From: Nostoc sp. PCC 7120 = FACHB-418
GTDB lineage: Bacteria > Cyanobacteriota > Cyanobacteriia > Cyanobacteriales > Nostocaceae
DNA: 32,000 bases
Direction of reading: 5' to 3'
NCBI RefSeq assembly: GCF_000009705.1
Contig: NC_003276.1
Span: forward strand, 1-32,000
Shown here in pieces: positions 5,201-30,919 of this stretch. The position numbers were made by a program, and so were the translations under genes. The notes beneath the pieces were generated by a model. It did not search any database, was not told the origin of the DNA, and saw only the letters and a list, made by a program, of their open reading frames with translations. The stretch's first letter is position 1, and each line of letters opens with the position of its first letter.

Positions 5201-5253
5201 TTGCTCGACTAATTAAGTGTTACTTTTTTAGTATACACTGATTTAGGCATAAC

Positions 5254-5673
5254 ATGAAAGATGATTTTGTTTCAAAAGGAAGGTCTGTTAGCGACCTAAA
5301 AGTGCATTTAGTATTGGTTACTAAATATCGGCGTAAAGCGTTTACGTCCGAGATGCTAAGTAGACTAAATGTTGTAATGCAAGAATTATTAGAAAAGTGG
5401 GATTGTAAGCTAGTAACGTTTAATGGTGAAGAGGATCATGTACACCTACTCTTTCAGTATCATCCAGACGTTGAACTTAGCAAGTTAGTCAATAATCTAA
5501 AGTCTGTATCATCGAGGAAACTTCGCCAAGAATTTGCAGAACATTTAGAAAGTTTCTATTGGAAGGACGTATTTTGGAGTGGTTCTTATTTTGTTGCTAG
5601 TTGTGGTGGCGTTACTGTTTCTACACTAAGAAAATATATTGAAGCGCAGGAATCACTCACACAATCAACCTAG
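5254..5673 (+). CDS. tnpA: IS200/IS605-family Y1 (HUH) transposase TnpA
   Basis: The 139-aa ORF has the HUH motif (EEDHVHLLFQY) and the C-terminal catalytic Tyr region (WSGSYFVASCGGVTVSTLRKYIEAQ). Size and motifs are typical. Confidence 0.9.
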   Translation: MKDDFVSKGRSVSDLKVHLVLVTKYRRKAFTSEMLSRLNVVMQELLEKWDCKLVTFNGEEDHVHLLFQYHPDVELSKLVNNLKSVSSRKLRQEFAEHLESFYWKDVFWSGSYFVASCGGVTVSTLRKYIEAQESLTQST

Positions 5674-7320: not shown

Positions 7321-8292
7321 TCAAATATGACTTAGTAAAACTTTAGCGATCGCTTGAGAAATAGGCAAGCCAGGACACCGTTCTAACCAAAAGAATTCAC
7401 CTACAGGATTAACTTCTAGAAAAACATAGCGATTATCTGGGGTTAAAATTACATCAATTGCCCCGTAATTTAAACCAAAATGCGCCATCAGTTGCAATAA
7501 TTTGTCTGCCACATCTTGGGGTAAAGTATGGGTTTGCCAAGCATCAAGTAAAGCTACCCCCTGTTTTCGCCAATCGTAACGGGATTTATCTAAGGCTTGA
7601 GAATTTACAGCCGCAGTCAATATAGATTTACCCACAATCGTGATTCTTAGTTCTAAAACTTTGGCAATTTTTTCTTGAAATGTCATCGGACAAAAACGCA
7701 ATCCCTCTAAATTTTCTAAATCTTCGCTCTTTACGGGATTGGTAAATACTACTTGTTCTCCCCCTTTTTCGTCATAAATGGCAAAGGAAGAAAGCATTTT
7801 TGTAATTACATCCTGTTGACATTCTGCGGCAAATTCTTTGACGGCTTGGGGATTATTGGTAGTTAAAGTCCGTGGGGTATCCAAACCGATTTTTCTGGCT
7901 ACTTGCAGTTGTAGTTGCTTGTTTTCTGCACGACGAATATTTGGCACAGGGTCGAGGTGAAAACCTCTGATGCTGGCAATCATTCCTTGAATCGTGGCGC
8001 GAGATTCTTGAATAGAAGCTTGGCGCAATTGCTTATCCATAGTTGGAGGAATTTTTCCACCAATGGCGATGCGCCGATACCAAACTGCTGTTACTTCGTT
8101 TAAATCTAGCTTTTGGTCATCAGCAACCAGGACACATTTTTCCGTATTACTGTAATAAATATCTAGTTGTACTTCCGTGGGAAATCGGTCTGTGTCAAAA
8201 CGAAATGCTTTACCTCCCTGTGATTCAATTGCTTGAGTTACTAGAGAAATACTTTCGTTATCGTGGCTGTGAGTAATAATTAAGACATTCAT
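7321..8292 (-). CDS. mdnC: Microviridin-type ATP-grasp macrocyclase, MdnC/MvdD-like (omega-ester ligase by similarity)
   Basis: Starts at the internal ATG (MNVLIITHSHDNESISLVTQAIESQGGKAFRFDTDRFPTEV...). Other matching stretches are AENKQLQLQVARKIGL, FCPMTFQEKI, LRITIVG, NYGAIDVILTPDNRYVFLEVNPVGEFFWLE. It closely resembles MdnC as I recall it. The 28-codon upstream extension in the ORF track overlaps the preceding gene and was trimmed. Confidence 0.85.
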   Translation of the reverse strand: MNVLIITHSHDNESISLVTQAIESQGGKAFRFDTDRFPTEVQLDIYYSNTEKCVLVADDQKLDLNEVTAVWYRRIAIGGKIPPTMDKQLRQASIQESRATIQGMIASIRGFHLDPVPNIRRAENKQLQLQVARKIGLDTPRTLTTNNPQAVKEFAAECQQDVITKMLSSFAIYDEKGGEQVVFTNPVKSEDLENLEGLRFCPMTFQEKIAKVLELRITIVGKSILTAAVNSQALDKSRYDWRKQGVALLDAWQTHTLPQDVADKLLQLMAHFGLNYGAIDVILTPDNRYVFLEVNPVGEFFWLERCPGLPISQAIAKVLLSHI

Positions 8293-8303
8293 ATAAAAGA
8301 TTT

Positions 8304-9284
8304 TTAGTTTTGAATGAGAGAATCTGCGATTGCTTCGGAAATGGGATAATTTAAATCTCGCTCTAACATTCCCCATTCCCCTGTAGGATTAATTTCTAAA
8401 AAAACATATTCTTCTAATGGGGTAACGATGAAATCAAACGCGCCAAATGTCAAACCCAACCGCGCCATAAATTGATCAAGGTGCTGAATAATCTCCTTTG
8501 GTAATTCGTAAGGCTGCCATGTACAAGACTCTTGGTTAGCACGTCGCCAATCTTGGGTAGATGCTTCATAACTAGAAGCGTCTAAAGCTCCCACAAATAA
8601 ATTGCCATTGACATATACTGCTCGTAATTCCTGCTGTTTGGGAATTTGCGCTTGAAAAACCATTGGACAGTAGCGCAGAGTCTCAGCATCTAGCAAGTCC
8701 TCTTCTTTAACGGTGCTGGTGTACATGAAAAAAGATGAGCCTTCCATGCTGTAAGAAAGGGGTTTTAACAGTTTGGTGATCATTTTGCCGTTGACTTGCT
8801 CAAAAAATTCTCTGGCTTCTTTGGGGTTATTAGTCACTAAAGTTGGAGGAATCACCAAACCAACTTCAGCAGCTACTCTCAGTTGATATAACTTATTTTC
8901 AGCTGCATTTATCTTCTGTAAATCATCCACCCAATGAGCGTGTCTGAGGCTGTCCCAAAAGCCATCCCACACAGCTAAAGATTCTTTAGTACAAGCATCT
9001 CGATATTGCGGAGCTAATTCTGGACTCAAATGCGGTTGCCAAAGTCGCCGCATCCATACAGCTTGTACTTGCTCAGTATTTAAGGTTATGTCTCCATACT
9101 CAATCTGATGATGAGAGTTTGATTGATGGAAATAAGCTTGAATTTTAACCGTCATGGGAAACTTATCAGTATCGAGGCGAAACGACTGGACATTTCTCCT
9201 GGATAAAGCTGCGGCAACTCTATCAATTGTGAAATAATCACCACTATGAGTAATTAATAAAACTACATCACGCTGTAAAGGCAT
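8304..9284 (-). CDS. mdnB: Microviridin-type ATP-grasp macrocyclase, MdnB/MvdC-like (omega-amide ligase by gene order)
   Basis: Starts at the internal ATG (MPLQRDVVLLITHSGDYFTIDRVAAALSRRNVQSFRLDTDKFP...). Other matching stretches are AENKLYQLRVAAEVGL, YCPMVFQAQI and FGAFDFIVTPLEEYVFLEINPTGEWGMLE. It is a paralogue of the downstream ligase and sits directly after the precursor gene. Confidence 0.8.
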   Translation of the reverse strand: MPLQRDVVLLITHSGDYFTIDRVAAALSRRNVQSFRLDTDKFPMTVKIQAYFHQSNSHHQIEYGDITLNTEQVQAVWMRRLWQPHLSPELAPQYRDACTKESLAVWDGFWDSLRHAHWVDDLQKINAAENKLYQLRVAAEVGLVIPPTLVTNNPKEAREFFEQVNGKMITKLLKPLSYSMEGSSFFMYTSTVKEEDLLDAETLRYCPMVFQAQIPKQQELRAVYVNGNLFVGALDASSYEASTQDWRRANQESCTWQPYELPKEIIQHLDQFMARLGLTFGAFDFIVTPLEEYVFLEINPTGEWGMLERDLNYPISEAIADSLIQN

Positions 9285-9324
9285 AAAATATTTTTCTGGA
9301 TGTCTGCAACACAAACTCGTTAAT

Positions 9325-9355
9325 TATTAATAAACCAACCCTTTGAAGGGGTTGG
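9325..9355 (-). terminator. Hairpin plus T-rich tail between precursor and ligase genes (possible attenuator)
   Basis: On the minus strand: CCAACCC-cttcaaa-GGGTTGG (7-bp stem, 9335-9355) followed by TTTATTAATAA. It lies 74 nt after the precursor stop codon and upstream of the mdnB-like start. Confidence 0.45.
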
Positions 9356-9428
9356 CGACAATCAGTATATTCATTTATTGACAAAATTTTCCCAGTTCAA
9401 AACTTTATTTACTCAAAATTAGCTATTT

Positions 9429-9731
9429 CTAACCAACTGGTTGATCATCGTCATCAGATGGAAATTTCAGAGTAACAATTTCGCCACCACCATTGTCTTC
9501 ATTATCAGAAGGATACTTCAGAGTGACAGCAATGTCTTCATCACGAAGTTTCCCGGTTACACCATTACCATCTTCACAATCAGAAGGATACTTTCTTGTT
9601 TGCCCTCTTTTTCCACCACTAACTGCTTCTGATTCTTCATCTGTCAGGTCTTCACAGTTTTGACCTTCTAAGAAGCGGGCAAAAAAGGGAACTGCTTGTG
9701 CGTTCAAATCTTCTTGTCTATTCTCTGGCAT
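9429..9731 (-). CDS. mdnA: Microviridin-family precursor peptide with three core repeats
   Basis: 100 aa from the internal ATG: MPENRQEDLNAQAVPFFARFLEGQNCEDLTDEESEAVSGGKRGQ-TRKYPSDCED-GNGVTGKLRDEDIAV-TLKYPSDNED-NGGGEIV-TLKFPSDDDD-QPVG. It has the PFFARFL leader motif (9669-9689). The three TxK[YF]PSDx[ED][ED] cores lie at 9570-9599, 9495-9524 and 9444-9473. Confidence 0.9.
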   Translation of the reverse strand: MPENRQEDLNAQAVPFFARFLEGQNCEDLTDEESEAVSGGKRGQTRKYPSDCEDGNGVTGKLRDEDIAVTLKYPSDNEDNGGGEIVTLKFPSDDDDQPVG

Positions 9732-9974
9732 AAATATTCTCCTAAGACAAAAATAAGTGACAATCAATTAACATCTTTAAACCAGGGTATTACATAATGT
9801 TTAACTAGACAAGTTTTTAATTTCTCTTAAATAGTAGTTAACTTTTTCCATGCCCATATACATACAAAAAATTTATCAAAAAAACTAATATTAGTTACGG
9901 TTTAAGTATTACTTAGATAATGTTAAGTTTTATTAAAAAAATATTTTGTTTTGAACTTAGTTAATCCCAAAAGC
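9732..9974. promoter_or_regulatory. AT-rich divergent intergenic region (presumed promoters of the precursor operon and the exporter gene)
   Basis: A 243-bp AT-rich spacer lies between divergent start codons (9731 minus, 9975 plus). No specific -10/-35 elements were assigned. Confidence 0.35.
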
Positions 9975-12119
9975 ATGAAATATCAGATTGTTTTGCAACA
10001 CAGTGAAGAAGACTGCGGCGCAGCGTGTATTGCCACTATTGCCAAATATTATAAACGGGACTTTGCGATCGCTCGTGTCCGGGAAGCTGTGGGTACAGGC
10101 GCACAAGGGACAACTCTGGTAGGTTTAAGACGCGGTGCAGAAAGTCTAGGATTTCATGCACGGCAAGTAAAAGCAACGCCACAATTAATTAATCAACTCC
10201 AGGAAGCACCTCTGCCTGCGATTATTCATTGGAAAGGTTACCACTGGGTAGTATTGTATGGTCAAAAAGGGAAAAAATATGTAATTGCAGATCCTGGCGT
10301 TGGTATTCGCTACATCAACCGCGAGGAATTAGCCACAGGCTGGGCAAATTGCATTATGTTATTGCTAGTCCCAGATGAAATTCGCTTTTATCAACAAGAA
10401 TCAGATAAAATTAAGGGCTTCAGTCATTTTTTAGCCAGAGTCATACCTTATCGCCACATTTTAACGGAAGCATTTTTAATTAACTTAGCAATGGGAATAT
10501 TGTCCCTAGCTTCCCCTTTTTTGATTCAAATTTTGACTGATGACGTATTAGTTAGAGGTGATATACAGCTACTAACTACAGTGGGAATTGGGGTAATGGC
10601 AATGAATATTTTTAGTAGTAGCTTAAAACTCATCCAATCTAACTTAATTGCCCATTTTGCTCAACGTTTAGAATTAGGCTTAACTTTAGAATTTGGTAGA
10701 CAAATTTTGCGTCTACCTTTAACCTACTACGAAGCTCACCGGAGTGGAGAAATTGTGAGTCGTTTGCGGGATATTGAACAAATAAATCAACTTGTATCAC
10801 AAGTCGTTATTAGCTTTCCTAGTCAAATTTTAATTGCCATAATTTCCCTAGCATTTATGTTGATTTACAGTTTCAAATTACTAGGTGTGGCAGTATTAAT
10901 GGCATTTATTATGTCATTATCTACAATAATTTTTCTGCCGACATTACAGCGCAAAGTTCGTGATGTTATTGTCACTCAAGCCGAAAATCAAGGTATGTTA
11001 ATTGAAACTTTTAAGGGGATACTAACATTGAAAACTAGCAACACAGCGCCGCAAGCTTGGGAAGAAATTCAACAGCGTTTTGGCCATCTGGCAAATTTGA
11101 GTTTTAGCACTGTGCAAATTGGTATTATCAATAATGTATTTTCTGGCTTGGTTTATGGATTTAGTAATTTGGCTGTACTATGGTTTGGGAGCAGTTTAGT
11201 AATTAATCAAGAATTAAGTATTGGTCAATTGTTAGCCTTTAATGCGATGAATGCTAATTTTAATGGTTTAATTACTACCGTAATTGGTTTTGTAGATGAA
11301 TTTGCTAGAGTTAAAACTGCCACCCAACGGGTAACGGAAGTTATTGATAGTACCCCTGAAGATCAAAATGAACAAGCTAAACCTTGGGCGAATCTTCCTG
11401 AAAATACAGATATTATCTGCTCTCAAATTAATTTTCACCACATAGGTAGAGCCAACTTACTTACAGATTTTTCTGTAACTATTCCTGGGGGGGAAGTTAC
11501 AGCATTAATTGGTAAATCTGGTTGTGGTAAAAGCACTTTAGCAAAACTTATAGCTGGATTATATCCGTTACAATCAGGTAATATTCGTTTCGGAATTTAT
11601 AACCATCATGATTTATCTTTAGAATGTCGGCGACAGCAAATAATATTAGTCCCTCAAGAAGCCCATTTTTGGAGTCGTTCAATTTTTGATAACTTCCGCT
11701 TTAGTTATCCTGATGTTACTTTTGAACAAATTGTCAAAGCTTGTCAAATTGCTGGTGCAGATGAATTTATTAATGAATTACCGGATGGCTACCAAACTGT
11801 ATTAGGGGAATTTGGGGTAAATATTTCCGGTGGGCAAAAACAAAGATTAGCTTTAGCCAGAGCTATTGTGACCGAACCACCAATTTTAATTTTAGATGAA
11901 TCGACTAGTGCCTTAGACCCAGTATTAGAAGCCCAAGTATTAGATAAATTGTTATTTCATCGGCAAGGTAAAACGACTATTATTATTAGCCATCGTTCCC
12001 GTGTCATTTTACGTGCAGATTTGATTGTTTATTTAGATAAAGGGCATTTAAAACTACAAGGTACTCTAGACCAAATACAAGTTATTTCAGGAGAACACTT
12101 AGATTTTTTAAACCCTTGA
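9975..12119 (+). CDS. Peptidase-containing ABC transporter (C39 double-glycine peptidase plus ABC exporter)
   Basis: The N-terminal C39 domain has a catalytic Cys (QHSEEDCGAACIATIAKYY), His (YHWVVLYG) and Asp (VIADPG). Six TM helices follow, then Walker A GKSGCGKST, signature ISGGQKQRLALARA, Walker B ILILDEST and H-loop IIISHR. The ATG at 9975 is preferred over the TTG at 9951. Confidence 0.9.
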   Translation: MKYQIVLQHSEEDCGAACIATIAKYYKRDFAIARVREAVGTGAQGTTLVGLRRGAESLGFHARQVKATPQLINQLQEAPLPAIIHWKGYHWVVLYGQKGKKYVIADPGVGIRYINREELATGWANCIMLLLVPDEIRFYQQESDKIKGFSHFLARVIPYRHILTEAFLINLAMGILSLASPFLIQILTDDVLVRGDIQLLTTVGIGVMAMNIFSSSLKLIQSNLIAHFAQRLELGLTLEFGRQILRLPLTYYEAHRSGEIVSRLRDIEQINQLVSQVVISFPSQILIAIISLAFMLIYSFKLLGVAVLMAFIMSLSTIIFLPTLQRKVRDVIVTQAENQGMLIETFKGILTLKTSNTAPQAWEEIQQRFGHLANLSFSTVQIGIINNVFSGLVYGFSNLAVLWFGSSLVINQELSIGQLLAFNAMNANFNGLITTVIGFVDEFARVKTATQRVTEVIDSTPEDQNEQAKPWANLPENTDIICSQINFHHIGRANLLTDFSVTIPGGEVTALIGKSGCGKSTLAKLIAGLYPLQSGNIRFGIYNHHDLSLECRRQQIILVPQEAHFWSRSIFDNFRFSYPDVTFEQIVKACQIAGADEFINELPDGYQTVLGEFGVNISGGQKQRLALARAIVTEPPILILDESTSALDPVLEAQVLDKLLFHRQGKTTIIISHRSRVILRADLIVYLDKGHLKLQGTLDQIQVISGEHLDFLNP

Positions 12120-12277
12120 TTAGTATTTGTAATATGCACATGGCGAAATTGTTGAAATGTTGCGCTTGCGTGGCAAATAGATCGGAAGTACCATACTGTT
12201 TACCCAGAGTTTTGACAAACAAAAAGCTGCTGCCATTGCTGATCTAAGCTCAGACAAGTTCAATCTGCAAACAACTT

Positions 12278-12790
12278 GTGATTAACCTACGCCCCGCCAC
12301 TCTAGCCGATTTGAATTTGTTGCGACATTGGGATGAGCAACCTCATGTGATTGCTTCAGATCCCAATGATGACTGGGGTTGGGAGGTAGAACTTGCTCGT
12401 TCTCCCGATTGGAGAGAGCAATTGATTGTGGAAATTGATAGTCGTCCTATCGGATTTATCCAGATCATCGATCCAGCACAAGAGGATAGCCATTACTGGG
12501 GTGATGTTGGGGAGAATCTTCGTGCCATTGATATTTGGATTGGTGAAGAGACTGATTTGGGTAAAGGCTATGGAACGCAAATGATGCGGCTTGCACTTGC
12601 TCGATGTTTTGCTGATCCACTTGTGACAGCTATACTTGTTGATCCACTAGCCAGCAATACCCGTGTTCATCGCTTTTATGAACGCCTTGGCTTCAAATTC
12701 ATCGAGCATCGCTGTTTCGGTGACGATGAGTGCTTTGTTTATCGCCTAAACCGAGAAGATTGGCACTGCAAAAGTGAAGTGTATGTCTAG
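12278..12790 (+). CDS. GNAT-family N-acetyltransferase (AAC(6')-Ib / Acetyltransf_8-like)
   Basis: The 170-aa ORF has a GTG start and reads IDIWIGEETDLGKGYGTQMMRLALARCFADPLVTAILVDPLASNTRVHRFYERLGFKF. It resembles the GIDQ..LGKGLGT...DP..SN.RAIRCYEKAGF pattern of AAC(6')-Ib-type GNATs, recalled from memory. It follows the exporter gene. Confidence 0.8.
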   Translation: MINLRPATLADLNLLRHWDEQPHVIASDPNDDWGWEVELARSPDWREQLIVEIDSRPIGFIQIIDPAQEDSHYWGDVGENLRAIDIWIGEETDLGKGYGTQMMRLALARCFADPLVTAILVDPLASNTRVHRFYERLGFKFIEHRCFGDDECFVYRLNREDWHCKSEVYV

Positions 12791-20108: not shown

Positions 20109-21016
20109 GAGGGTGTTTGAAAAGTAGGGGATGTTGTAAAAAAACTCCCTCGGTATAAGCTGTGAATAGATAACAAACAGCACCGAGAGAGCGACATGAG
20201 TAAAGCATACCCCAGCAATCTGACCCGTGAGCAATATGAATTGATCAGGGACCTGATTCCAGAGGCAAAACCCGGTGGACGTAAGCGTGAAGTGGATATG
20301 TGGTCAGTCCTAAATGCAATTTTCTATATTTTGGTAGAAGGAGTGAGATGGCGAGGGCTACCAGGAGATTTTCCGCCCTGGCAAACAGTGTACACATATT
20401 TCCGTAACTGGCGTAAAGACGGAACGTGGTTACACATCCACGACAGGCTGAGGGAGTGGGTGCGGATAGAGCAGGAACGACACAAGAATCCATCAGAAGC
20501 GATCATCGATAGTCAAAGCGTCAAAAGTGCGGCGATGCTGAGTCAAGACGTAGGCTTTGATTCAGGTAAGAAAATTAAAGGGCGTAAGCGATTTATCACA
20601 GTCGATACCTTGGGATTAGTACTACGAGTCTTGGTGACGGCTGCCAATGTGGGTGAGCGTGCTGGTGGTCAACAAGTTCTCAAACGAGTTAAACAATCTC
20701 AGGCGAAAGATCGCTTAACCACCATTTGGGTTGATGGTGGCTTTGATGGGGAACCGTTCATGCAGTGGGTCATGAATTTTTGTCGTTGGATTGTACAGGT
20801 GGTGCTGCGGCCAGAGCAAACCAAGGGCTTTGTTTTGCTCAAAAAACGTTGGGTGGTAGAACGCACTTTTGGCTGGTTCATGGGATGTCGGCGATTGGTT
20901 AGAGATTATGAATTATTACCCGAAACCTCAGAAACATTTATCTACCTTGCAATGATCCGTATTATGGTGAAGCGATTGGCTTAATTTTGACTCCCTATAA
21001 CTTTTCAAACATCCTC
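20109..21016 (+). mobile_element. Complete IS5-family insertion sequence (908 bp)
   Basis: The terminal inverted repeats are GAGGGTGTTTGAAAAGT (20109-20125) and the reverse complement of 21000-21016, GAGGATGTTTGAAAAGT. A 3-bp direct duplication, TTA, lies at 20106-20108 and 21017-19. The element has a single transposase ORF. Confidence 0.9.
20196..20984 (+). CDS. IS5-family DDE transposase (single-frame)
   Basis: The 262-aa ORF has an N-terminal DUF4096-like region (LTREQYELIRDLIPEAKPGGRKREVDMWSVLNAIFYILVEGVRWRGLPGDFPPWQTVYTYFRNW). The DDE region reads IIDSQSVK...TVDTLGL...IWVDGGFDG...VVERTFGW. Confidence 0.9.
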   Translation: MSKAYPSNLTREQYELIRDLIPEAKPGGRKREVDMWSVLNAIFYILVEGVRWRGLPGDFPPWQTVYTYFRNWRKDGTWLHIHDRLREWVRIEQERHKNPSEAIIDSQSVKSAAMLSQDVGFDSGKKIKGRKRFITVDTLGLVLRVLVTAANVGERAGGQQVLKRVKQSQAKDRLTTIWVDGGFDGEPFMQWVMNFCRWIVQVVLRPEQTKGFVLLKKRWVVERTFGWFMGCRRLVRDYELLPETSETFIYLAMIRIMVKRLA

Positions 21017-21362: not shown

Positions 21363-24300
21363 TTAAAAATGGGTAGGAGAGTGAGCAGATATCACAATAA
21401 AACCAACAGAATCAAGTTTAAGTTGTGGCTGATGAATGCCTTGAACGATAGCGGACTTCAAAAGCCTTTCGATTTTCAATTCTTCAGCTAGAGTATTATC
21501 CCAAGCTTGTGTATTCAAACGTAAATTTAACTGCTCTACTTTAGCAGCTAGTTTCTGCTCTGCTAAATGAGCATAACGTTGACATAGTTGAATCAAGTGT
21601 TGACGTTGGGTGAGTAACGTCCTTGATGTATTACTAACTTCTTGACAAACTTTAGACCAATTAGTAGGCGCAATAAAATTGTCAATGATTCCTAAACGTT
21701 CTTTAGCAAGATTATGATCTTGTACTTCATGAGAAGTTTTATCTTTTTGATATGGGCGTTGTAATATACTCAAGAGTAATTCATCCTGAACTTCACTAAG
21801 TATTTCGGAACGAGCATCAATAAAGATAGTTTCAATCAATGGTGGAAATAAAGCGTCTACCTGACGCTTCAAGACGTTAAACCGAGAATTATCAAGTTGA
21901 TAATCTGTAAAAATCTGCTTGGCTTTTTCCAGATTAAATTCAACTAAATAGTTACATTGAAAACCAAACCATTCCATGCCCTCACTGCTGTCCCAAGATG
22001 AATCTTGTCGCCAAAGAGCAAAAGCTTGACCACGGTCATCCCATTCTATATATCTGGAAAGTGCATCTACCAACCCTTCTCCTATACGAAAAAGTTTGAT
22101 ACCAGGATTGTGGTTTGCTAGTTGGCGGTCATAAGTACCAAATTGGTTGAGATTGCTATGGATAAAGCGAGATTTCAACTCGTTGAGAGGGACTAAAGTA
22201 TACTTAGTTGCTTGATAATACTTGACATTTGCTAAATCTGGGTGATAAACAGATTTGAATTTTAGTGAATTATCAATCCAACCTTCTATAGCTCGTTTAA
22301 TTTCCAGATGATTAAGATCGTAACTATCTAGCTCTGGAAAAAATGTATCGTCATTCTCTCCAAGCAGAGCCTTATTTAATTTATGTTCTGCAATCACCTG
22401 GGATTGCGCTTGAGCAATTGTGTTTTTGATGGATTCTACTTGTTTGAGTAAACCAATAGCGCCTATTTGAAACAAGCTTTGTTCTAGATGTGATAATTCA
22501 TTATCTAATCGGAAACTAGCTATAGACTCAGTAAAAATGGAAAATCCATCCTTTAAAAGTTGATACCAAGCATAATGAAGACTATCATCTAAATCAGCGC
22601 CAACTAGTACGGTAAAATCAATATTTTTAGAACGCCCAATTTGGTCGAATCTAATAATTCTCTGTTCTAATTGATGTGGTTGCCAAGGTAGGTCAAAATT
22701 AATTACCCAATCAACAAATCCAAAATTATGACCCTCCTGTGCAGAAACATCACAGATAAAGATAAAGTAATTAGGATTAGTGTAAAACTGCTGTAAGTTT
22801 TTCTCGATTTCTCCCCAACTTTGTTCTGATTGATGGACAGCAATAGTTTCTGTACCAAAAGCATTTGCTAGTGAACGAGCGATTTCTAAGCAGGTTTGTC
22901 CAAAACTGGTAAATATCAATATCTTTGGCAAATAATCACCAGGAATAGGTCTAGAAATTCTCTGCCGGATTCTCTCGCTTAGTTTGCTAAGGTCGCTGCG
23001 AAATGATTGCAAACCAAAAATTTCTGATAAGCGGTAGAGAATGATGATTTTTAATAGTTCAATTCGATCTCCGTCTTCTGAAGGTTGATTAATAATTTGG
23101 CGTAAAGAGGTTAAAACCTCTTCTTCACCTTCAAACTTGGGAGTTTCAGTTAAGAGATTGACATCATCACTACTAAACTCTTTAAGTAGCAATGGATGAC
23201 GCACTCCACTCTGGCGTGCGGCTATTACTCGCTCTAAAATACCTAACCACGTACCAGAAGCTAAGAACAACAGCAGAAAAATGCGTTTATAAGCTTCCTG
23301 TTTGGGGGCAATAGTACGCCATTTCTCTAGCAGTTCATGAATATCAGGCGACCTCTCATCTAAATCGTATTCTTCCTTGGGTGTAATATTGCGGCTAAAT
23401 GTGTCATCTTCTAGATAAGCACGACGATTAGACAGTATTCGCTGATACAGTCGATAGTTTTCATTAATATAACTGCAAATTTCTTTAAGGGTTTTAGTAT
23501 GAGCAGACGAATCAGTGTTTAAGCCATCTTCCCATTTACCTAATAAAGTTAATAAATACTTGTCTTCGGGTAATAATGTTTGTAATTGCTTTAAACCATT
23601 GTGGACATTAGAAGTATTTTCCTCATTTATTAATGAGGAGATAAGTTGAGCTAGCAGTTTATCTTTATTAATTTTTAGCTGAAAATCTTCTAGATTATTG
23701 AGTTGATAAATTTTAGGCTCAAGTAAATGCAGCAGAACTAGTAACTCTTGCTCACATTGAAGAATATGACTTGCAGATAGTAAAAGTAAGTGTTCGCTTC
23801 TATGGGCTAGATACTTATAGATTTCAAAATCCTGGCGTAGTTTGCTATCTTGGGAATTAGCCATTGCGGCAATGTGGTGGGCTTCATCCAAAATTAGCAA
23901 GCCAATATTTTTCTGTGCATTAATTTTGGACGAATCCTCGTATGCCAGCACTACTACTCTTGTAGGAAACGAAGAAATATAGAATTTATTCTCTAACTCA
24001 TTTTTCCATTGTTGTAGTAATTTCCCTGGAACCAAGACTACTACTTTTTTTTCTGGCTCATCAAGTAGATATTGGCGCAGAATTACACCAGCTTCAATAG
24101 TTTTTCCCAGTCCGGCTTCATCAGCTAATATGTAGCGTTGAACTGAATCTTGTAATACTTGCCTGATGACTTCTACTTGATGAGGGTAAAGATGAATATT
24201 GGATGAAATTAGTCCACTCATCCCACGACTTACAGCCCTCTGCTGGATTAAGCATTTGATTAAAGCTGACCTTCTGTCGTGTAAATAGGGTGTTTCGTGT

Positions 24301-24668
24301 GCCTTGATTGCTAGTGTTTCAACCGGATCTTTTATTGTTAAATTACAACGGACATAAACTTCTTGTTCTGATTTAATTATAGATTTCTGCCCTGGCAAAT
24401 CAATTTCATACCTTTGGATGTCTTCATCCCATCCAGAAATTCTGCCAATTACCCATTTATATTTATCTTGCTCTTTTAATTGAACATAACATCGCGTTTG
24501 AGGTCTTAGTATAACCCCAGACAACGATTGTAAGGGTAAATGTTCTTGCCAGTGCTGTCCTATGGTACTAAAATACTCAACAACAATACTGCCACCAGAT
24601 ACTTCAATTACTTTACCTGTCCCCAAAGTATTATTTGAGGACTGCACTAATGAGCCAAGCTTAATCAT
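21363..24668 (-). CDS. SNF2-family ATPase/helicase, RapA-like
   Basis: The 1101-aa ORF has an N-terminal Tudor-like segment (LGTGKVIEVSGGSIVVEYF). SF2 motifs are LYPHQVEVIRQVL, ILADEAGLGKTIEAG (Walker A), LLILDEAHH (DEAH), LLLSAS, and QEGHNFGFVDWVINFDLPWQPHQLEQRIIRFDQIGR (motifs V-VI). The layout parallels E. coli RapA as recalled. Confidence 0.85.
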   Translation of the reverse strand: MIKLGSLVQSSNNTLGTGKVIEVSGGSIVVEYFSTIGQHWQEHLPLQSLSGVILRPQTRCYVQLKEQDKYKWVIGRISGWDEDIQRYEIDLPGQKSIIKSEQEVYVRCNLTIKDPVETLAIKAHETPYLHDRRSALIKCLIQQRAVSRGMSGLISSNIHLYPHQVEVIRQVLQDSVQRYILADEAGLGKTIEAGVILRQYLLDEPEKKVVVLVPGKLLQQWKNELENKFYISSFPTRVVVLAYEDSSKINAQKNIGLLILDEAHHIAAMANSQDSKLRQDFEIYKYLAHRSEHLLLLSASHILQCEQELLVLLHLLEPKIYQLNNLEDFQLKINKDKLLAQLISSLINEENTSNVHNGLKQLQTLLPEDKYLLTLLGKWEDGLNTDSSAHTKTLKEICSYINENYRLYQRILSNRRAYLEDDTFSRNITPKEEYDLDERSPDIHELLEKWRTIAPKQEAYKRIFLLLFLASGTWLGILERVIAARQSGVRHPLLLKEFSSDDVNLLTETPKFEGEEEVLTSLRQIINQPSEDGDRIELLKIIILYRLSEIFGLQSFRSDLSKLSERIRQRISRPIPGDYLPKILIFTSFGQTCLEIARSLANAFGTETIAVHQSEQSWGEIEKNLQQFYTNPNYFIFICDVSAQEGHNFGFVDWVINFDLPWQPHQLEQRIIRFDQIGRSKNIDFTVLVGADLDDSLHYAWYQLLKDGFSIFTESIASFRLDNELSHLEQSLFQIGAIGLLKQVESIKNTIAQAQSQVIAEHKLNKALLGENDDTFFPELDSYDLNHLEIKRAIEGWIDNSLKFKSVYHPDLANVKYYQATKYTLVPLNELKSRFIHSNLNQFGTYDRQLANHNPGIKLFRIGEGLVDALSRYIEWDDRGQAFALWRQDSSWDSSEGMEWFGFQCNYLVEFNLEKAKQIFTDYQLDNSRFNVLKRQVDALFPPLIETIFIDARSEILSEVQDELLLSILQRPYQKDKTSHEVQDHNLAKERLGIIDNFIAPTNWSKVCQEVSNTSRTLLTQRQHLIQLCQRYAHLAEQKLAAKVEQLNLRLNTQAWDNTLAEELKIERLLKSAIVQGIHQPQLKLDSVGFIVISAHSPTHF

Positions 24669-24689
24669 CAGAAAAATAGGTTTGAAACC

Positions 24690-24715
24690 CCGCCCTTTAG
24701 CAACGCGGAGGGCGG
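24690..24715 (-). other. Stem-loop in the 62-bp isrB-helicase spacer (terminator or IS200/IS605-type end hairpin)
   Basis: CCGCCCT (24690-24696) pairs with AGGGCGG (24709-24715) across a 12-nt loop. On the minus strand it is followed by GGTTTCAAACCTATTTTTC. Confidence 0.4.
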
Positions 24716-24730
24716 CTTTACAAATATCTT

Positions 24731-25825
24731 CTAGGCAACAATTAAGCCGTTGGAACGGCTAATTAACTGCACTTTACTAGAAGCAATCTGCCCTAACCGT
24801 TTCCAGTTAGCGTCGCTGACAGATACTTGTTTTTCGGTGTCTCCTGACACATAGCCAATCCCTTTAGGGGAAGTAACTAAATCCCCCTTGCGTAAGCCAT
24901 GACGAGTTGTAGAACCGCCATATTTACGACGTACACCACTTTTTGCAGGAACCATCAAGTGAAGTTGGCGGCGAGAGTAAGGAGGACGACGAATTAGTTT
25001 AAATAGCGCAAATGTAATCACAACATTTCCAAACCAATCGCCACCATTAACTTTTACTGTGTGATACTGGCGATACTCAACAAAAGCTGTAGCTGCAATA
25101 GCCACACCATCAACTGCATGAGTATTAAATTCTGACTTAGACTTGTCTGAAGAGTTTTTAGTCAGTCCCAGGTATTTACGAGTTGACGCGGTTTGATAAC
25201 CTTCGACTTTCGCTACTGGGGCAAACTGTTCTAACTGCTTCAACATCCACTTCTGCCCGACCATCACCGCAGAGAAACCTTTACCACTCCTAGCTTTTTT
25301 ACGTCCACTGGTCAGGTCTACATCTGCCCTAACGTACTCGTAACGAATTTCTGAGATTGGATAGATTTTGCATAGCTCAGAAACAATTCTCAACTCAAGT
25401 TGACGATTGGCGCGAATTGAAGGTGGAAGTTTACCCTGACGACGATTATCAAAGCGTTTCTGACGATGTGCGCGTTTTAAAAAATTAACCTTACGATCAA
25501 TCCTTCTACCTCTGCGACCACGCCGCATTAATCGTCTTGCGTCCATGCGATCACGCACTGTTTGGAATGGCAAAATCAAGTGAGCCGTGTACAGTGTGAA
25601 CTTGGCAGACTGTACACCGATCCCAGAAAACTTTTTACCTGGATCAATCCCAATAACAATATCTTGGGTTGCTCGTCCAGATGGTTCACCAGTAAGTTGC
25701 ACATAAAATTGTCCACAGTCTGAAGTGCGTTTTACCGCTTTACCCGACTCTACCCATTTCCTAGCCCTTGCGGGTGTTGTGGGCATTAGTGGTTGGTGGT
25801 TTTTATCTACTACAGGTACTCGCAT
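24731..25825 (-). CDS. isrB: IsrB-type OMEGA effector (PLMP domain plus split RuvC, no HNH); often annotated as RRXRR-domain protein
   Basis: 364 aa from the ATG at 25825. It reads MRVPVVDKNHQPLMPTTPARARKWVESGKA (PLMP motif), VIGIDPGKKFSGIGV (RuvC-I), RRLMRRGRRGRRIDRK...RFDNRR (Arg-rich bridge helix, RRXRR), ISEIRYEYVRADV (RuvC-II) and FNTHAVDGVAIA (RuvC-III). No Cys/His HNH insert lies between RuvC-II and RuvC-III. The C-terminal segment is GDLVTSPKGIGYVSG. Confidence 0.8.
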   Translation of the reverse strand: MRVPVVDKNHQPLMPTTPARARKWVESGKAVKRTSDCGQFYVQLTGEPSGRATQDIVIGIDPGKKFSGIGVQSAKFTLYTAHLILPFQTVRDRMDARRLMRRGRRGRRIDRKVNFLKRAHRQKRFDNRRQGKLPPSIRANRQLELRIVSELCKIYPISEIRYEYVRADVDLTSGRKKARSGKGFSAVMVGQKWMLKQLEQFAPVAKVEGYQTASTRKYLGLTKNSSDKSKSEFNTHAVDGVAIAATAFVEYRQYHTVKVNGGDWFGNVVITFALFKLIRRPPYSRRQLHLMVPAKSGVRRKYGGSTTRHGLRKGDLVTSPKGIGYVSGDTEKQVSVSDANWKRLGQIASSKVQLISRSNGLIVA

Positions 25826-26115
25826 TTTGGTATAACCCAATTTCTTGTTTTAGTCCCTTCCCGCAACAAGGTTAAGATGTCTTGGCTTTACCCAACTTCT
25901 GAACCAATCAGAATTACAGAGGGCTAAACTAGGGAAGCATTTAGCCGTGTTTACCAAACCTTGTCTCAATGCGGTATTCACCTTTTGCATTGTCTAAATT
26001 GGTTTAGACAATCCCTGCACTTTTAGAGGCAGGGATGGTGAAAGTTTTGTCCCCTAATCCTGAACCTTCTCAAATCCCAGCCAAAAATTTCGCAGAATTA
26101 CAATTCTAACTGGTT
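25826..26115 (-). ncRNA. Candidate omega-RNA scaffold upstream of isrB (boundaries approximate)
   Basis: About 290 nt are non-coding on the isrB strand and hold several perfect stems. The stem pairs are 25990-25998/26003-26011 (9 bp), 26013-26018/26029-26034 (6 bp), 25922-25928/25940-25946 (7 bp) and 25897-25902/25908-25913 (6 bp). The palindrome AGAATT..AATTCT lies at 26093-26106. The loop GGGAAG (25932-25937) can pair with CTTCCC (25857-25862), a possible pseudoknot. The position matches published IscB/IsrB omega-RNAs. Confidence 0.5.
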
Positions 26116-26176
26116 TTTGTATAGACGTGTTTCAGGAATTGATTGCCTCTACTCCAAAGCGATTGTCTGTAACTCT

Positions 26177-26473
26177 TCACCCCATCAATACCACCCAATC
26201 GGGAACCGCAGCTACCAACTGCTCAAACATCTGCGGCTCTTGCTCATCAATCGCCATTATCACGCCTCAGCGCTCGTCACTATTGAGGGTGGAGAGGAAC
26301 TGTTTGACTGCATCAACCCCATGCGTTACCCGTGACATCGCAAGCGTAGCGTAAGATTTTACTTGTTGCCACCATGAATCACAGGGGTCACAACAATTCG
26401 CAATTTCCAATTCACAATTTGCAGTTATTTCCTCATGAGTAAAGTCGGAGGCTTGGATATTGATGGCACACAT
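26177..26473 (-). pseudogene. Extra, diverged copy of the CyRepA C-terminal domain with an in-frame TGA
   Basis: It reads [97 protein letters not shown]. This is colinear with the last roughly 95 residues of the 1132-aa protein (PINIIG...[70 protein letters not shown]). TGA at 26267-26269 replaces the Trp codon. A 37-nt identical run lies at 26215-26251 and 27551-27587. Confidence 0.75.
26394..26421. repeat. Tandem heptamer repeat (CAATTCG CAATTTC CAATTCA CAATTTG) inside the CyRepA-C paralogue
   Basis: Read directly. It encodes the ..ANCELEIANC.. stretch, which has no counterpart in the full-length gene. Confidence 0.7.
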
Positions 26474-26756
26474 TTTATTTTTTCATCTCTTTATTAATGT
26501 GCTACTTGATATTTTGGCACAAGTAATATTATCCATTAGAAGATTTTTAAAGCTTTCTTTCAGAGATAGATACTTATAAAACTTAGTTAAAAAATCAAAT
26601 TGATATTTTATAGAAATTAAATATTGTGACAAATACTAAAGTGTCACTTAATTGATTGCTGATTGTGAAATGAAAATTTTATAGTTCGTTATATATTACA
26701 ACTACAGTTGGGTACTAGTAATAGCTAATAACGAGTAAATTTTACTAAGTTTTTAT

Positions 26757-27449
26757 ATGTTTACAGCCATCTCAAATAGAAAAGCGATACTAGCTCTGTT
26801 ACTGTTAGTACCAGTTCCAAGTGTTGGGGTAGCGGCTGGATTATATCTTCCCGGAATTTTAGGAACTTCAGTAGCTTTGTTTTCTAAAATCTGGATGTTA
26901 CTAGTACCAATTGTCTGGTTAGTGTTTATAGAGCCAGAGGATTTCCATCTAAAAGCTCAACAGGCTCAAGGACGTGATTTATTAGTTGGGCTGGGATTAG
27001 GATTATTGATGTTGGGCATGATTTTAATGACTTATAAGTGGCTAGGTTCACAATGGATAGATGTTGAATATGTTCGTGAACGTGCAAGACAAATTGGATT
27101 GAATAATTTTGTAATTTATTTGATAGGTTCAGGGTATTGGGTATTTATTAATTCCTTACTTGAAGAATTTGTTTGGCGTTGGTTTGTCTATCGCCAATGT
27201 GAAATACTAGTGTCTAGTCCATTTGCTGTAGTTTTATCAGCATTGTTTTTCACAATTCATCATATTGTTGGTTTAGCAGCATACTTCGACTGGCGTGCGA
27301 CAACATTATGTTCATTGGGTGTGTTCATTGCCGGGCTGATATGGTCATGGTGCTACTTAACTTATCGCTCAATCTGGGTTGGATACATCAGCCATGTTTT
27401 TGCAGATATAGCAATTTTTATCGTTGGCTGGCAACTTCTGTTCACGTAA
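26757..27449 (+). CDS. CPBP-family intramembrane metalloprotease (CAAX protease / Abi-like)
   Basis: The 230-aa polytopic membrane ORF has the three family motifs: EEFVWR (EExxxR), FFTIHH (FxxxH) and HVFAD (HxxxD/N). Confidence 0.85.
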   Translation: MFTAISNRKAILALLLLVPVPSVGVAAGLYLPGILGTSVALFSKIWMLLVPIVWLVFIEPEDFHLKAQQAQGRDLLVGLGLGLLMLGMILMTYKWLGSQWIDVEYVRERARQIGLNNFVIYLIGSGYWVFINSLLEEFVWRWFVYRQCEILVSSPFAVVLSALFFTIHHIVGLAAYFDWRATTLCSLGVFIAGLIWSWCYLTYRSIWVGYISHVFADIAIFIVGWQLLFT

Positions 27450-27520: not shown

Positions 27521-30500
27521 TCACCCCATCCACTGTACCCAATCGTGAGCCTGTGCCACCAACTGCTCAAACATCTGCGGCTCTTGCTCATCAATTGCCA
27601 TCATCACGCCCCATTTTTCATCACTAGTGAGGGTGCTGAGGAACTGTTTGACTGATTCCACCCCATGAGCTACCCGTTCCATTGCCAGTTGGGCATAAAA
27701 TTTTACCTGCCCCCACCAAGAATCACAGGGGTCAAGCTGTCCGTCCATACCCCCGCAATTATTATCTCCAATTATATTAATGGGGGGTGTGGACGGGGCA
27801 TCAATACCATACATAGCCTGTATCCTAGCCGCATACGCCGCCTGAGCCTCCCGTTCCTCTTGTCGTCGCCTTTCCCTCTCATCCCTCAACCGTTGCCGAT
27901 ACTCAAGAACCTTCTGGGTAAACGCAACATCCTCAGTGCTTAAGCGGTAATACCTCACACGCTTACCATCTTCTAAAGGCCGCCGCGACTGGGTAGACAG
28001 TGCCAGTTGACCCAGGTATTGACTTAAAATCCAAATTGGAGACTCATCAAGAGGTATAGTCAAGTTAAGGATGCCTTTGATATGGGTGGTATTACGTTTT
28101 GAGAAGTCAGCCAATGCTTCAATAGTCGCTTCATCTCCCTTAATCTCTACCCCATCCATCAAATCTGTCAATATCGCCCTCAAACCCAACCGATGACGTA
28201 TGAGCCAGGATGTGGAATGATTGCCCCAATCGGTACAAATAGCCAAGCGATCGCGTTCCCCCTTATCCCGTTCCACCACCACATCAGGCGGCGTAACGAA
28301 CTCGCGCCCCTGCTCATCAGTAACAACATCCCCTGGCGCTGCCAAGATAGCCTCAAGTGCAACAATCTTTTTAATGAGCCGTCCGCCGTCATCTTTCTCA
28401 ACTAGCTCAGGTGTAACAGCCATACCGTAGGTATCCCAAATACGGAATTTCTCACACTCTAGAGCTTCTTCTGGCTTGAGGTAGTCCTGGTGTTGCCTAG
28501 CAGTGTAAGTTTTTCTATCGATATCCTTGGCATTAGCCACTTTCTGATAATGTTCAGAGTCAATGGCATTTCCCGCCGCCTTCATCAAATGCCGTGCAGC
28601 TTCATCCATTTTATCCCCGGCTGGAACAATGGTGTTACCCATTTCCACGAGAAGCGATCGCAGATCAGCACGCAAATTATTGATAGACCAGTTCCTCTGC
28701 GCCTCAATCTGACAATACGTATCTAACGCCCAGTCTTTTTCCGCGCCGCGCTGACCCGTTTCCTTGTCGATGCGGATTAAAAACGCGGTCATTTCATTTT
28801 TCTGAAGGATTTTCTCTTTGATGTGCCGGGGGTTAGTTTCCGCATAACCAAACGGAGGGCGAGGCGCTACCCAAACGTGCATCGGGACGTTAGGACGATA
28901 CCGCCACAACTGTTGAACGCATTCAGTGGCTGATTGGGAAACGGCGTGAAACACCCCAAATATTACATCAAAATGGTAGGTGGAAATATCAACGCCAGTA
29001 CCGAGGCTAGGAGTAGTTAACAGCGCATCAACTGATTGAATTGCGGTGTTAATCTCCCTGATGAAAATAATATTCTCTTCACTACCGCTATTTTCTGAGT
29101 GAATAGTCCAAATCCTAAGCTGTCGGTCATCTTCTGATTCTGGCGCATTATCTTCGGGCAATTCGCAATTCTCCAAGTTGGGAATTGTTGCTGCCCTCTG
29201 CCCCTTGTCCTTTTTCCCCCTGTACATTTGCGCTGCTACTTCATTCAAAGCGCGTTCTAACTTTTTGATGAATCGTTTACTATCGCTGACGACAATCGGC
29301 TTCAGTCCTAACATCAACTGAACATGGATTTGAGCAACGATGGCGCTGCTGTCATCACCCTCATACCAATGAACTTTGCGATCGCCTGACCGATACTCAT
29401 TCTTGATGATGAAGGGTTTCTCGCCTTGGGGTCGCATCGCCCTGAAGAAGTCAATGGTCAAATCGTCTAAGTGGGCATCAGCCAAAACCACCAGCTTGGC
29501 ATTGTACACCAGATACTCTAACACCTCCAGAATCAGCCCCCGGTGTTCCTTACAGGTTTTGGACTGGAGTAAATGGGCGAGATACTGACAAGCTTCGTCG
29601 ATAAATATAATTTCATAAGCCCGTAAATCATTTGCCATCTTATACAATGAGTCTACGGTGATGCTGAGAGCGTGGACGGCTGCCCAATCGCCGCAAGCGA
29701 TCGCTGAGTACATGACAGTCAGCAGGCGATCGCTGAGATTCTTTAGCAAACTCACCCGATGCCCATTGTTCAAAAAGCTCAAATCTGGGTTATCTCTTCT
29801 GATAATAGCCATCAATTCTGTCTTGCCAGTACCCATATCCGAAGCCAAGCCAACCAAACCAGACTGAGGCAAGGAACCGATGGCTTGGGACAAATAACGG
29901 GTGTTAACTGTGACATTGGGCTTGTACTTATGTAGTCCTCTCGGCTTTTTGAAGAAAAACCTCTGGTGATATTCTTGCAGGGTAAGGGCATCAGCAATCA
30001 TTGCCGATACTGCCTTGTCAGCCTTCTTGCCTAAAGCCACCACCCAATCATCGATGCCCTTCTCTGGCCCTGGCAATAATGCGATACTACACTCGCAGCC
30101 AGCGTCTTGGATGACATGGGCGGTGCGGCGTGTGGCTTGAAAGACTTGCAGTTGTGTCTTGGGTTTAGTTTCGTAATCAAACAGGATGATGAATCTGCGA
30201 CCGGGTTGAGCCATCGGTACTAAGTCAGGGTGCAGCCGCTCGAAATCTTCCTTGCCGACGCGACCATTCCATATTCCAGGGAGTGCGATCGCGGCAAATC
30301 CCAGAGATAATAGACAAGCCGCCTTCTTCTCACCTTCGGTAAGAGTAATCGTTATTTCGGGATGTGCCAGCACCCAAGCCCAGAATCCTAAAGCTTCACC
30401 TTCTGGCGTGATGACGATATTCTCTGGCATCGGCACGTCATAGCGCAAAGATACCAACTGCCAAATGCTCAGGGTAACTCGGAAGTAACCCAGACGGTTC

Positions 30501-30919
30501 GGGGTTTTGGGGGGAGACTCGTATTTGATTGGCTTCGGCGAAGAAGCAGTGGAAGCAAGGGAGGCAGGGGAGGAATGAATACTAAATTCTCCCCCTGCTC
30601 CCCCTGCTGCACCCCTCCCCCTGCTGTGTTGTTCCCATTCCAGTCGCGGACAATCAGGCTTCAACCGTCCCCAGTCCATCGGCAGCCAGTCGTTGAGCGG
30701 GTCGAGTCCACTGACCCACCAAGCATTAGTGATGTGGGCGTATAGTCGCAAATACCCAAACCGTAGCCGTCCGTCGTTTCTTCTGGCAGTTTGGGGTAAA
30801 GCATACAACAAGTATTCGTATATTTCGTCTCCTAAGAGCGATCGCACGTTGAGCAAAATCAATTTTTCATCAACGCCACTGTTGAGCCATTCTTGCAAAT
30901 GATGAGGTTCGAGATTCAT
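27521..30919 (-). CDS. CyRepA-like plasmid replication protein (DUF3854/Toprim-like primase domain plus P-loop helicase domain)
   Basis: The 1132-aa ORF has a Toprim-like region ([45 protein letters not shown]). Walker A is [11 protein letters not shown] and Walker B is [10 protein letters not shown]. The overall architecture matches cyanobacterial CyRepA-type Rep proteins as I recall them. Confidence 0.75.
30589..30623. repeat. Three copies of the nonamer CTCCCCCTG inside the CyRepA-like gene
   Basis: The copies lie at 30589-30597, 30598-30606 and 30615-30623. GGCAGGGGAGG at 30563-30573 is nearly complementary. Together they encode the low-complexity stretch [26 protein letters not shown]. 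Confidence 0.7.

Follow-up and report, generated by a model that had tools for sequence, protein, structure and literature searches.

An IsrB element inserted flush against the start codon of dpdE in Nostoc sp. PCC 7120, with a predicted omega-RNA scaffold, guide and target-adjacent motif

The 32,000-nt stretch analyzed here (the window; contig NC_003276.1 of Nostoc sp. PCC 7120, positions 1 to 32,000 of the forward strand) carries an isrB gene on its minus strand, at which an IsrB-type OMEGA locus, encoding an RNA-guided nickase and its guide RNA, had been proposed from the sequence (hereafter, the original prediction). The whole element spans 1374 bp (24669-26042, minus strand) and comprises, in the direction of the gene, a predicted omega-RNA scaffold (25826-26042), isrB (24731-25825) and a conserved 3′ end (24669-24730), its ends being set by empty sites in related plasmids. 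Immediately beyond the 3′ end lies dpdE (21363-24668; NCBIfam DpdE, 893 bits), for which the same ATG is annotated as the start in Trichormus. Upstream of the element, the order is a 134-nt host spacer, a C-terminal remnant of CyRepA1, an Rce1-like gene (26757-27449) and a full CyRepA1 gene (27521-30919).

The isrB open reading frame (ORF), on the minus strand, begins with the ATG at 25825, ends with the stop at 24731 and specifies a protein of 364 aa, as the original prediction had it; an alternative TTG start five codons upstream is unused in homologues, all of which start with MR(V/I)PVV. The five motifs quoted in that prediction were all located in the protein: PLMP at residues 12-15, IGIDPG (RuvC-I) at 58-63, an Arg-rich bridge helix (RRLMRRGRRGRR) at 97-108, EIRYEYV (RuvC-II) at 159-165 and THAVDG (RuvC-III) at 235-240. 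A Pfam scan returned RRXRR (PF14239) alone (E 5.4e-51, residues 3-176), with no HNH family at E<=1, and the NCBIfam IscB model aligned over positions 3-161 of 314 only, at 111 bits, below its cut-off of 175. In a sequence search against all solved structures, the best match was 8DMB, the IsrB nickase of Desulfovirgula thermocuniculi (DtIsrB), which aligned over residues 2-361 (E 1.2e-44), continuously across the interval between RuvC-II and RuvC-III, as far as the end of 8DMB, and with the DtIsrB PLMP domain set against the PLMP region. IscB chains of solved structures, by comparison, aligned to the N-terminal ~120-175 residues only. The protein holds two cysteines in total, none past residue 152. 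The profile and structure-sequence searches suggested at the outset thus place the protein with IsrB and bear out the claimed absence of an HNH insert; an IscB with a hidden HNH domain was rejected, given the lack of an HNH family in Pfam, the partial match to the IscB model and the full-length alignment with 8DMB.

Residues D61, E163, H236 and D239, which, going by RuvC nucleases and Cas9 in general, are the RuvC catalytic residues, align with the DPG, E, H and D of 8DMB and are invariant in 48 homologues. Equally invariant in these homologues are R343 and Q346, which align with DtIsrB R323 and Q326, the residues that read G3 and A4 of the target-adjacent motif (TAM) (PMC9581776). As judged from its sequence, the window protein is an HNH-less IsrB with PLMP, RuvC and C-terminal TAM-interacting (TI) domains, in which the catalytic and TAM-reading residues are kept. 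It shares with DtIsrB (Hirano et al. 2022, PMC9581776) the series PLMP, RuvC-I, bridge helix, RuvC-II, RuvC-III and TI without HNH, together with the TAM-reading Arg and Gln. It differs in a ~28-residue insertion after RuvC-III (residues 248-275); moreover, the window host is a mesophile. The protein is 100% identical to the NCBI entry 'RRXRR domain-containing protein (plasmid) [Anabaena sp. FACHB-709]'. Its family numbers 2775 proteins at E<=1e-10, all 80 of the 80 related genomic loci fetched were cyanobacterial, and the window IsrB sits in a Nostocales-centred subclade with 79-92% identity within it.

Directly 5′ of isrB, the original prediction had placed a non-coding, structured leader of roughly 290 nt. 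It was confirmed as non-coding and proved to be structured far beyond chance, whereas the scaffold proper covers only 217 nt (26042-25826, minus strand). No ORF of note was found on the same strand in the 350 nt 5′ of isrB, up to the stop of the CyRepA1 remnant (26179-26177). An Infernal search and an alignment of homologous leaders had been proposed as checks, and both gave positive results. The Rfam family HEARO (RF02033) matched 25847-26042 on the minus strand across the whole model (positions 1-211 of 211; 55.5 bits, E 2.2e-10), immediately 5′ of the gene and oriented with it, as expected; HEARO was later shown to be the guide RNA (omega-RNA) of IscB and IsrB (bioRxiv 10.1101/2023.03.14.532601).

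The alignment of leaders from 41 homologous loci revealed strong conservation and covariation. The fold predicted by RNAalifold had 43 pairs, of which 37 showed compensatory changes; adding an outer stem (TTCACC/GGTGAA) and a loop-loop pseudoknot (ACCAAU/AUUGGU) to it gave a structure of 53 pairs. Across the 41 leaders, 95.6% of cells were paired in this structure, compared with 28-47% when the partners were slid by 1-3 columns; changes on both sides were seen in 44 of the 53 pairs, and the covariation score was 0.61 against 0.05-0.11 for the slid partners. The observed values were reached in none of 500 shuffles.

In the 5′ domain (25977-26042, minus strand), the outer stem pairs TTCACC (26042-26037) with GGTGAA (25982-25977) around stem-loop (SL) 1 (26034-26013) and SL2 (26010-25991). 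These three helices were 90-98% paired, with compensatory changes at 12 of 17 pairs. The loop-to-downstream pseudoknot that had been suspected exists as the adaptor pseudoknot (25903-26003, minus strand), in which the SL2 loop ACCAAU (26003-25998) pairs with the SL5 loop AUUGGU (25908-25903); 92% of its cells were paired, and all 6 of its 6 pairs changed on both sides. A nexus pseudoknot (25854-25935, minus strand) joins the SL4 loop UCCCU (25935-25931) to AGGGA (25858-25854), with 99.5% of cells paired and compensatory changes at 3 of 5 pairs. At the position of SL3, the window scaffold holds only ~6 unpaired nt. Consistent with the HEARO match and the covariation, the 5′ 217 nt of the element fold as a group B IsrB omega-RNA scaffold lacking SL3 and containing both pseudoknots.

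The omega-RNA of DtIsrB is likewise of group B, with an SL2-SL5 adaptor pseudoknot and an SL4 nexus pseudoknot (PMC9581776), but the window scaffold is shorter (217 versus 262 nt), with the ~6 unpaired nt in place of SL3. Closer in this respect are CwIsrB (Crocosphaera watsonii) and DsIsrB (Dolichospermum sp.), cyanobacterial members of subgroup B2, whose omega-RNAs are of group B without SL3, as in the window, and for which an NTG TAM and in vitro nicking have been shown (PMC9581776). Three loci of Crocosphaera watsonii WH 8501 (L039, L041 and L048) encode proteins 60-62% identical to the window IsrB, although these may not be the tested copy. A search with nhmmer and the scaffold profile found no second scaffold copy in the window. 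Among the relatives, three otherwise typical loci (L010, L016 and L044) carry a ~56-nt G+C-rich, hairpin-capable insertion near SL6, ~70-130 nt 5′ of the isrB ATG, which may be a nested miniature repeat element.

The ends of the element were delineated by comparison with empty sites, found by BLAST against plasmids. Both flanks of the locus are contiguous in plasmid A of Trichormus variabilis ATCC 29413 (...GGGGACAAAACT|ATGATTAAGC..., L001 1756|1757) and in pNOS3756_1 of Nostoc sp. NIES-3756 (L002 1601|1602); the insertion is therefore 26042-24669, 1374 bp, and neither junction is ambiguous. Comparison of the filled and empty sites revealed neither a target-site duplication nor terminal inverted repeats, and the element separates the ATG of dpdE from its 5′ spacer. 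The first base of the element coincides with HEARO model position 1. It also marks where homology to the element begins in more than 20 other genomes, in which the similarity stops 4 nt past the last base, these 4 nt always being ATGA. One further record, CP183474.1, was compared with the window over 2101 nt and showed no difference.

The 3′ end (24669-24730, minus strand), the transposase 'left end' in a plus-strand reading, is conserved in 40 distinct insertions as well as in phage copies. It contains a subterminal hairpin formed by CCGCCCT (24715-24709) and AGGGCGG (24696-24690), followed by GGTTTCAAACC and the T-rich terminus TTTTTCTG. The conserved end next to TCAT reads ...GGGGTTTCAAACC(N)TTTTTCTG, and the other end reads TTCACC...GGTGAA; subterminal hairpins are present at both ends (24690-24715 and 26013-26034). 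The ATGA abutting the 3′ end (24665-24668, minus strand; TCAT on the plus strand), of which the ATG is the dpdE start codon, is also present at both empty sites and is therefore host target sequence outside the element. It adjoins the element end in every related insertion examined (the 40 distinct insertions, plus the phage copies). This genomic ATGA fits the motifs of tested IsrBs, which nick the non-target strand beside NTGA (the motif of DtIsrB) or NTG using a 20-nt guide, orthologues from Crocosphaera and Dolichospermum having been among those tested (PMC9581776). The TAM read from the genome thus agrees both with the in vitro motif and with the TAM-reading residues of the protein.

At the opposite end, DNA 5′ of the scaffold was unrelated among the 41 aligned loci, the variability beginning exactly at the insertion boundary. 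Adopting the 20-nt guide length of DtIsrB (PMC9581776) and the placement outside the transposon boundary described by Meers et al. (bioRxiv 10.1101/2023.03.14.532601), we predict the guide to be CAGGAUUAGGGGACAAAACU (26043-26062, minus strand), which is host DNA and makes up the final 20 nt of the spacer 5′ of dpdE, directly 5′ of the scaffold. The original prediction had expected it near 26110-26135, ~70 nt too far upstream. Within the window, no other match to this guide was found with up to 3 mismatches. Relative to the Trichormus and NIES-3756 empty sites, the guide shows 1 and 2 base differences, respectively, all within the six TAM-distal positions. At the occupied locus itself, the guide match precedes TTCA, the start of the scaffold, and not NTGA. 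The 134 nt between the scaffold and the CyRepA1 remnant are host spacer, found likewise at the empty sites; the part beyond the guide (26063-26176, minus strand), which extends from the stop of the remnant (26179-26177) and is homologous to the spacer between CyRepA1 and dpdE at the two empty sites, is the presumed source of the transcript carrying guide and scaffold.

Collectively, these features make it very probable that 24669-26042 is a non-autonomous IS200/IS605-family IsrB (OMEGA) element, apparently functionally intact. Extrapolating from work on DtIsrB, CwIsrB, DsIsrB and GstIscB, we propose a scheme in which transcription would begin in the upstream host DNA and yield an RNA with a ~20-nt 5′ guide (26062-26043) joined to the scaffold. 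IsrB with this RNA would recognize guide-matching DNA followed by ATGA (target CAGGATTAGGGGACAAAACT plus ATGA), a combination expected only at an element-free copy of the site, whether arising by excision or lying on a sister or related replicon. By analogy with the characterized enzymes, we infer that the window IsrB would be directed to make a nick in the empty site's non-target strand, after which repair from the occupied copy would restore or spread the element. The occupied site should be spared, since the guide match there continues into TTCA rather than NTGA. Movement itself would require a Y1 TnpA acting in trans and inserting the element 3′ of TCAT on the plus strand, and precise excision would leave the donor joint ACAAAACT|ATGATT.

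This arrangement resembles that of the ISGst IscB elements of Geobacillus stearothermophilus (bioRxiv 10.1101/2023.03.14.532601), which are also non-autonomous members of IS200/IS605, derive the scaffold from one transposon end, encode the guide in the flank and show an orientation bias toward the direction of the upstream gene. In that system, the IscB guide lies outside the transposon end and requires outside transcription, and the nuclease shares its motif with TnpA; the GstIscB motif TTCAT is the complement of ATGAA, comparable to TCAT on the plus strand of the window (bioRxiv 10.1101/2023.03.14.532601). The two differ in that IscB carries an HNH domain and cleaves both strands, whereas the window IsrB lacks one and would be expected to make a single-strand nick.

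No tnpA lies inside the element. The original prediction that no Y1 tnpA adjoins it was correct for the element, but the same window does hold one, the only one detected there, at 5254-5673 (Pfam Y1_Tnp, E 1.3e-44; NCBIfam IS200, 136 bits), within an unrelated IS605 copy. That IS200/IS605 copy (4331-5673) consists of the tnpA on the plus strand and a divergent, C-terminally truncated tnpB (4331-5200, minus strand; TnpB model positions 1-279 of 389). Its DNA shows no similarity to the ends of the IsrB element, and the TnpA at 5254-5673 is therefore not proposed as the mobilizer.

Several observations weigh against an intact, mobile element. Comparison of the IsrB element ends with all other parts of the window, the IS605 copy among them, returned only chance DNA matches of 9-16 nt, and a Y1 tnpA was found within 3 kb at only 1 of 80 related loci, a proportion in line with the ~1.5% of iscB genes reported with tnpA (bioRxiv 10.1101/2023.03.14.532601). 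All contexts retrieved for the identical protein were the same locus, which gives no sign of recent movement in strain PCC 7120. No sigma-70 consensus promoter was found 5′ of the guide, and a promoter and terminator scan of 24500-26600 gave counts not above those of shuffled sequence, with nothing upstream of the guide. The AlphaFold model of the protein, built on an input alignment of 48 homologues with 79-93% identity, was poor (pLDDT 48, pTM 0.41). Homing would have to proceed through a single-strand nick and not a double-strand break. Finally, the HEARO match of the scaffold, at 55.5 bits, falls below the Rfam gathering score of 83 bits, and at gathering thresholds Rfam yielded no match in the whole window. 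However, this score was reached by 0 of 20 related loci, indicating that the Rfam model systematically under-scores the clade; homology to HEARO is clear (E 2.2e-10), while curated membership is not reached.

Some of these points could also be explained by an inactive relic, that is, a copy in decay and unable to move, in which RNA and protein have ceased to be produced or to cooperate. Such a relic would accommodate the lack of a cognate TnpA in the element, or of one with matching ends in the window, as well as the failure to detect a promoter, and some relatives do carry nested ~56-nt scaffold insertions or truncated genes. We nevertheless regard it as extremely unlikely, as the ORF is full-length with all family-invariant residues, the window copy retains all scaffold helices and both pseudoknots intact, and comparison with relatives shows no base missing from either end.

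The position of the element, flush with the start codon of dpdE and in the same orientation, raised the further question of whether it has been recruited by the host. The original prediction had called it non-autonomous or domesticated; the former holds, whereas the latter sits poorly with the site being empty in two related plasmids and with the dozens of independent insertions, of identical end structure, that the family shows in many cyanobacteria. A domesticated IsrB would be a host-recruited RNA-guided regulator or a part of the Dpd defence, acting in cis on dpdE expression. TldR proteins, nuclease-dead relatives of TnpB that act on the expression of other genes, provide a precedent for recruitment of this kind. 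Apart from its exact placement, the lack of a nearby tnpA with matching ends and the single context in the PCC 7120 genome would suit such a role, and the family-wide preference for start codons described below might point to some influence on the gene downstream. Unlike nuclease-dead, TldR-like exapted relatives, however, the window IsrB has intact and invariant catalytic residues; the vacancy of the same site in two related plasmids shows that dpdE can do without the element; each insertion has a different gene downstream; and the guide-matching DNA at the occupied locus lacks a TAM, for which reason binding of the complex there is not expected. Domestication is therefore very unlikely, and a mobile, non-autonomous element remains the favored interpretation.

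Placement at a start codon proved to be a recurrent property of this element family. In a first survey of 40 distinct insertions, 28 had an ORF of 60 aa or more, in the isrB orientation, opened by the ATG of the flanking ATGA. In a stricter test, the empty sites were reconstructed and an ORF of at least 100 aa without an in-frame ATG upstream was required; 15 of 23 insertions passed, compared with the 3.6% expected from all other ATGA sites in the same loci (p about 1e-16). When the comparison was confined to 'tolerated' ATGA sites, which are intergenic or at gene starts, 12% were expected (p 3.6e-9). Furthermore, in a test independent of element boundaries, such an ORF started no more than 150 nt past the isrB stop at 37 of 71 loci, against 6.4% of random 150-nt windows, and 33 of these 37 starts lay 57-67 nt past the stop, which is the usual length of the element tail. 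Annotated records agree with these counts: the element abuts the start of gp170 in Microcystis phage Ma-LMM01 and that of a helix-turn-helix gene on a Dolichospermum plasmid. In an independent set of viral contigs, the ATGA junction was present at 8 of 8 distinct insertions, with the ATG opening an ORF of at least 100 aa at 4 of them and one of 56-57 aa at 2 more. Overall (loci L003-L082, L089 and L092-L102), ~52-65% of insertions are flush with a co-oriented host start codon, versus 4-12% expected.

The simplest reading of this bias combines selection against gene disruption with the documented dependence of guide production on co-oriented transcription from outside (bioRxiv 10.1101/2023.03.14.532601). 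The two pressures together would favor sites within transcription units yet outside coding sequence, among which start-codon ATGAs are common. It is quite possible, although we stop short of calling it probable, that the family has gone further and is adapted to dock flush at co-oriented host start codons, with ATGA doubling as ATG plus A. The element would then sit between the host promoter and 5′ untranslated region (UTR) on one side and the coding sequence on the other; the host promoter would make the omega-RNA, the host 5′ UTR would serve as the guide, and the downstream gene would have its ribosome-binding region replaced by the conserved T-rich end of the element. If the bias reflects such targeting or adaptation and not just survivorship, it would amount to an unreported rule linking RNA-guided transposon insertion to host gene expression. 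The 2009 HEARO paper reportedly describes integration next to ATGA or GTGA. We found no published account of a start-codon insertion bias in a search that did not extend to that paper or to Altae-Tran et al. 2021, and the bias, seen over ~70 loci, may be the one observation here that is new.

The IsrB family, its omega-RNA and its mechanism are already published, with two cyanobacterial orthologues tested and the present protein recorded at NCBI as an RRXRR-domain protein; a search for literature on IsrB in Anabaena or Nostoc PCC 7120 found none. The locus offers a clean natural example in which one filled and two empty sites define an element to the base and the guide can be read from the host spacer. 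In a genetically tractable cyanobacterium, it would be a convenient test case for whether a nickase-only OMEGA system supports transposon retention, for how the guide-bearing transcript arises, and for the effect of start-codon insertion on a downstream gene, here dpdE, which encodes a component of the Dpd DNA-modification defence.

The same element family is also present in Microcystis phages (Ma-LMM01 and the MaMV group; H12-H20) and in IMG/VR contigs (L093-L103), at 68% DNA identity over nearly the whole element, and phages may accordingly carry it between hosts. In Ma-LMM01 (L089 1370-1500), just upstream of its IsrB element, the true scaffold start is preceded by three additional copies, tandem and degenerate, of the 5′ end of the omega-RNA (GTCACTAACC... 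and some of SL1). A different sequence follows each copy, in an arrangement resembling repeats and spacers; these copies could be the product of repeated partial end duplication. In a Hydrococcus metagenome-assembled genome, a cobalamin riboswitch (L022 1695-1941; Rfam, 53.9 bits) lies ~840 nt upstream of the IsrB element in the same orientation.

Around the element, the CyRepA1 remnant (26177-26473) retains the C-terminal ~100 codons and has an internal stop, and plasmid A of Trichormus has a full CyRepA1 before dpdE at that place. The remnant, together with the full paralogue (27521-30919) 1.3 kb further on, indicates that the region has been rearranged. Other transposase genes or fragments occur at 165-554, 934-1719, 2527-3315 and 20196-20984 (IS4/IS5 DUF4096 and DDE, ISL3 and MULE-like); the last of these coordinates lies just beyond the dpdE 3′ end, and the stretch as a whole is transposon-rich. 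The window further contains a microviridin-type cluster (7321-12790) with two MvdD-like ATP-grasp ligases (7321-8376 and 8304-9314), an Inhibitor_I10 precursor (9429-9767), a C39-peptidase ABC exporter (9951-12119) and a GNAT acetyltransferase (12278-12790).

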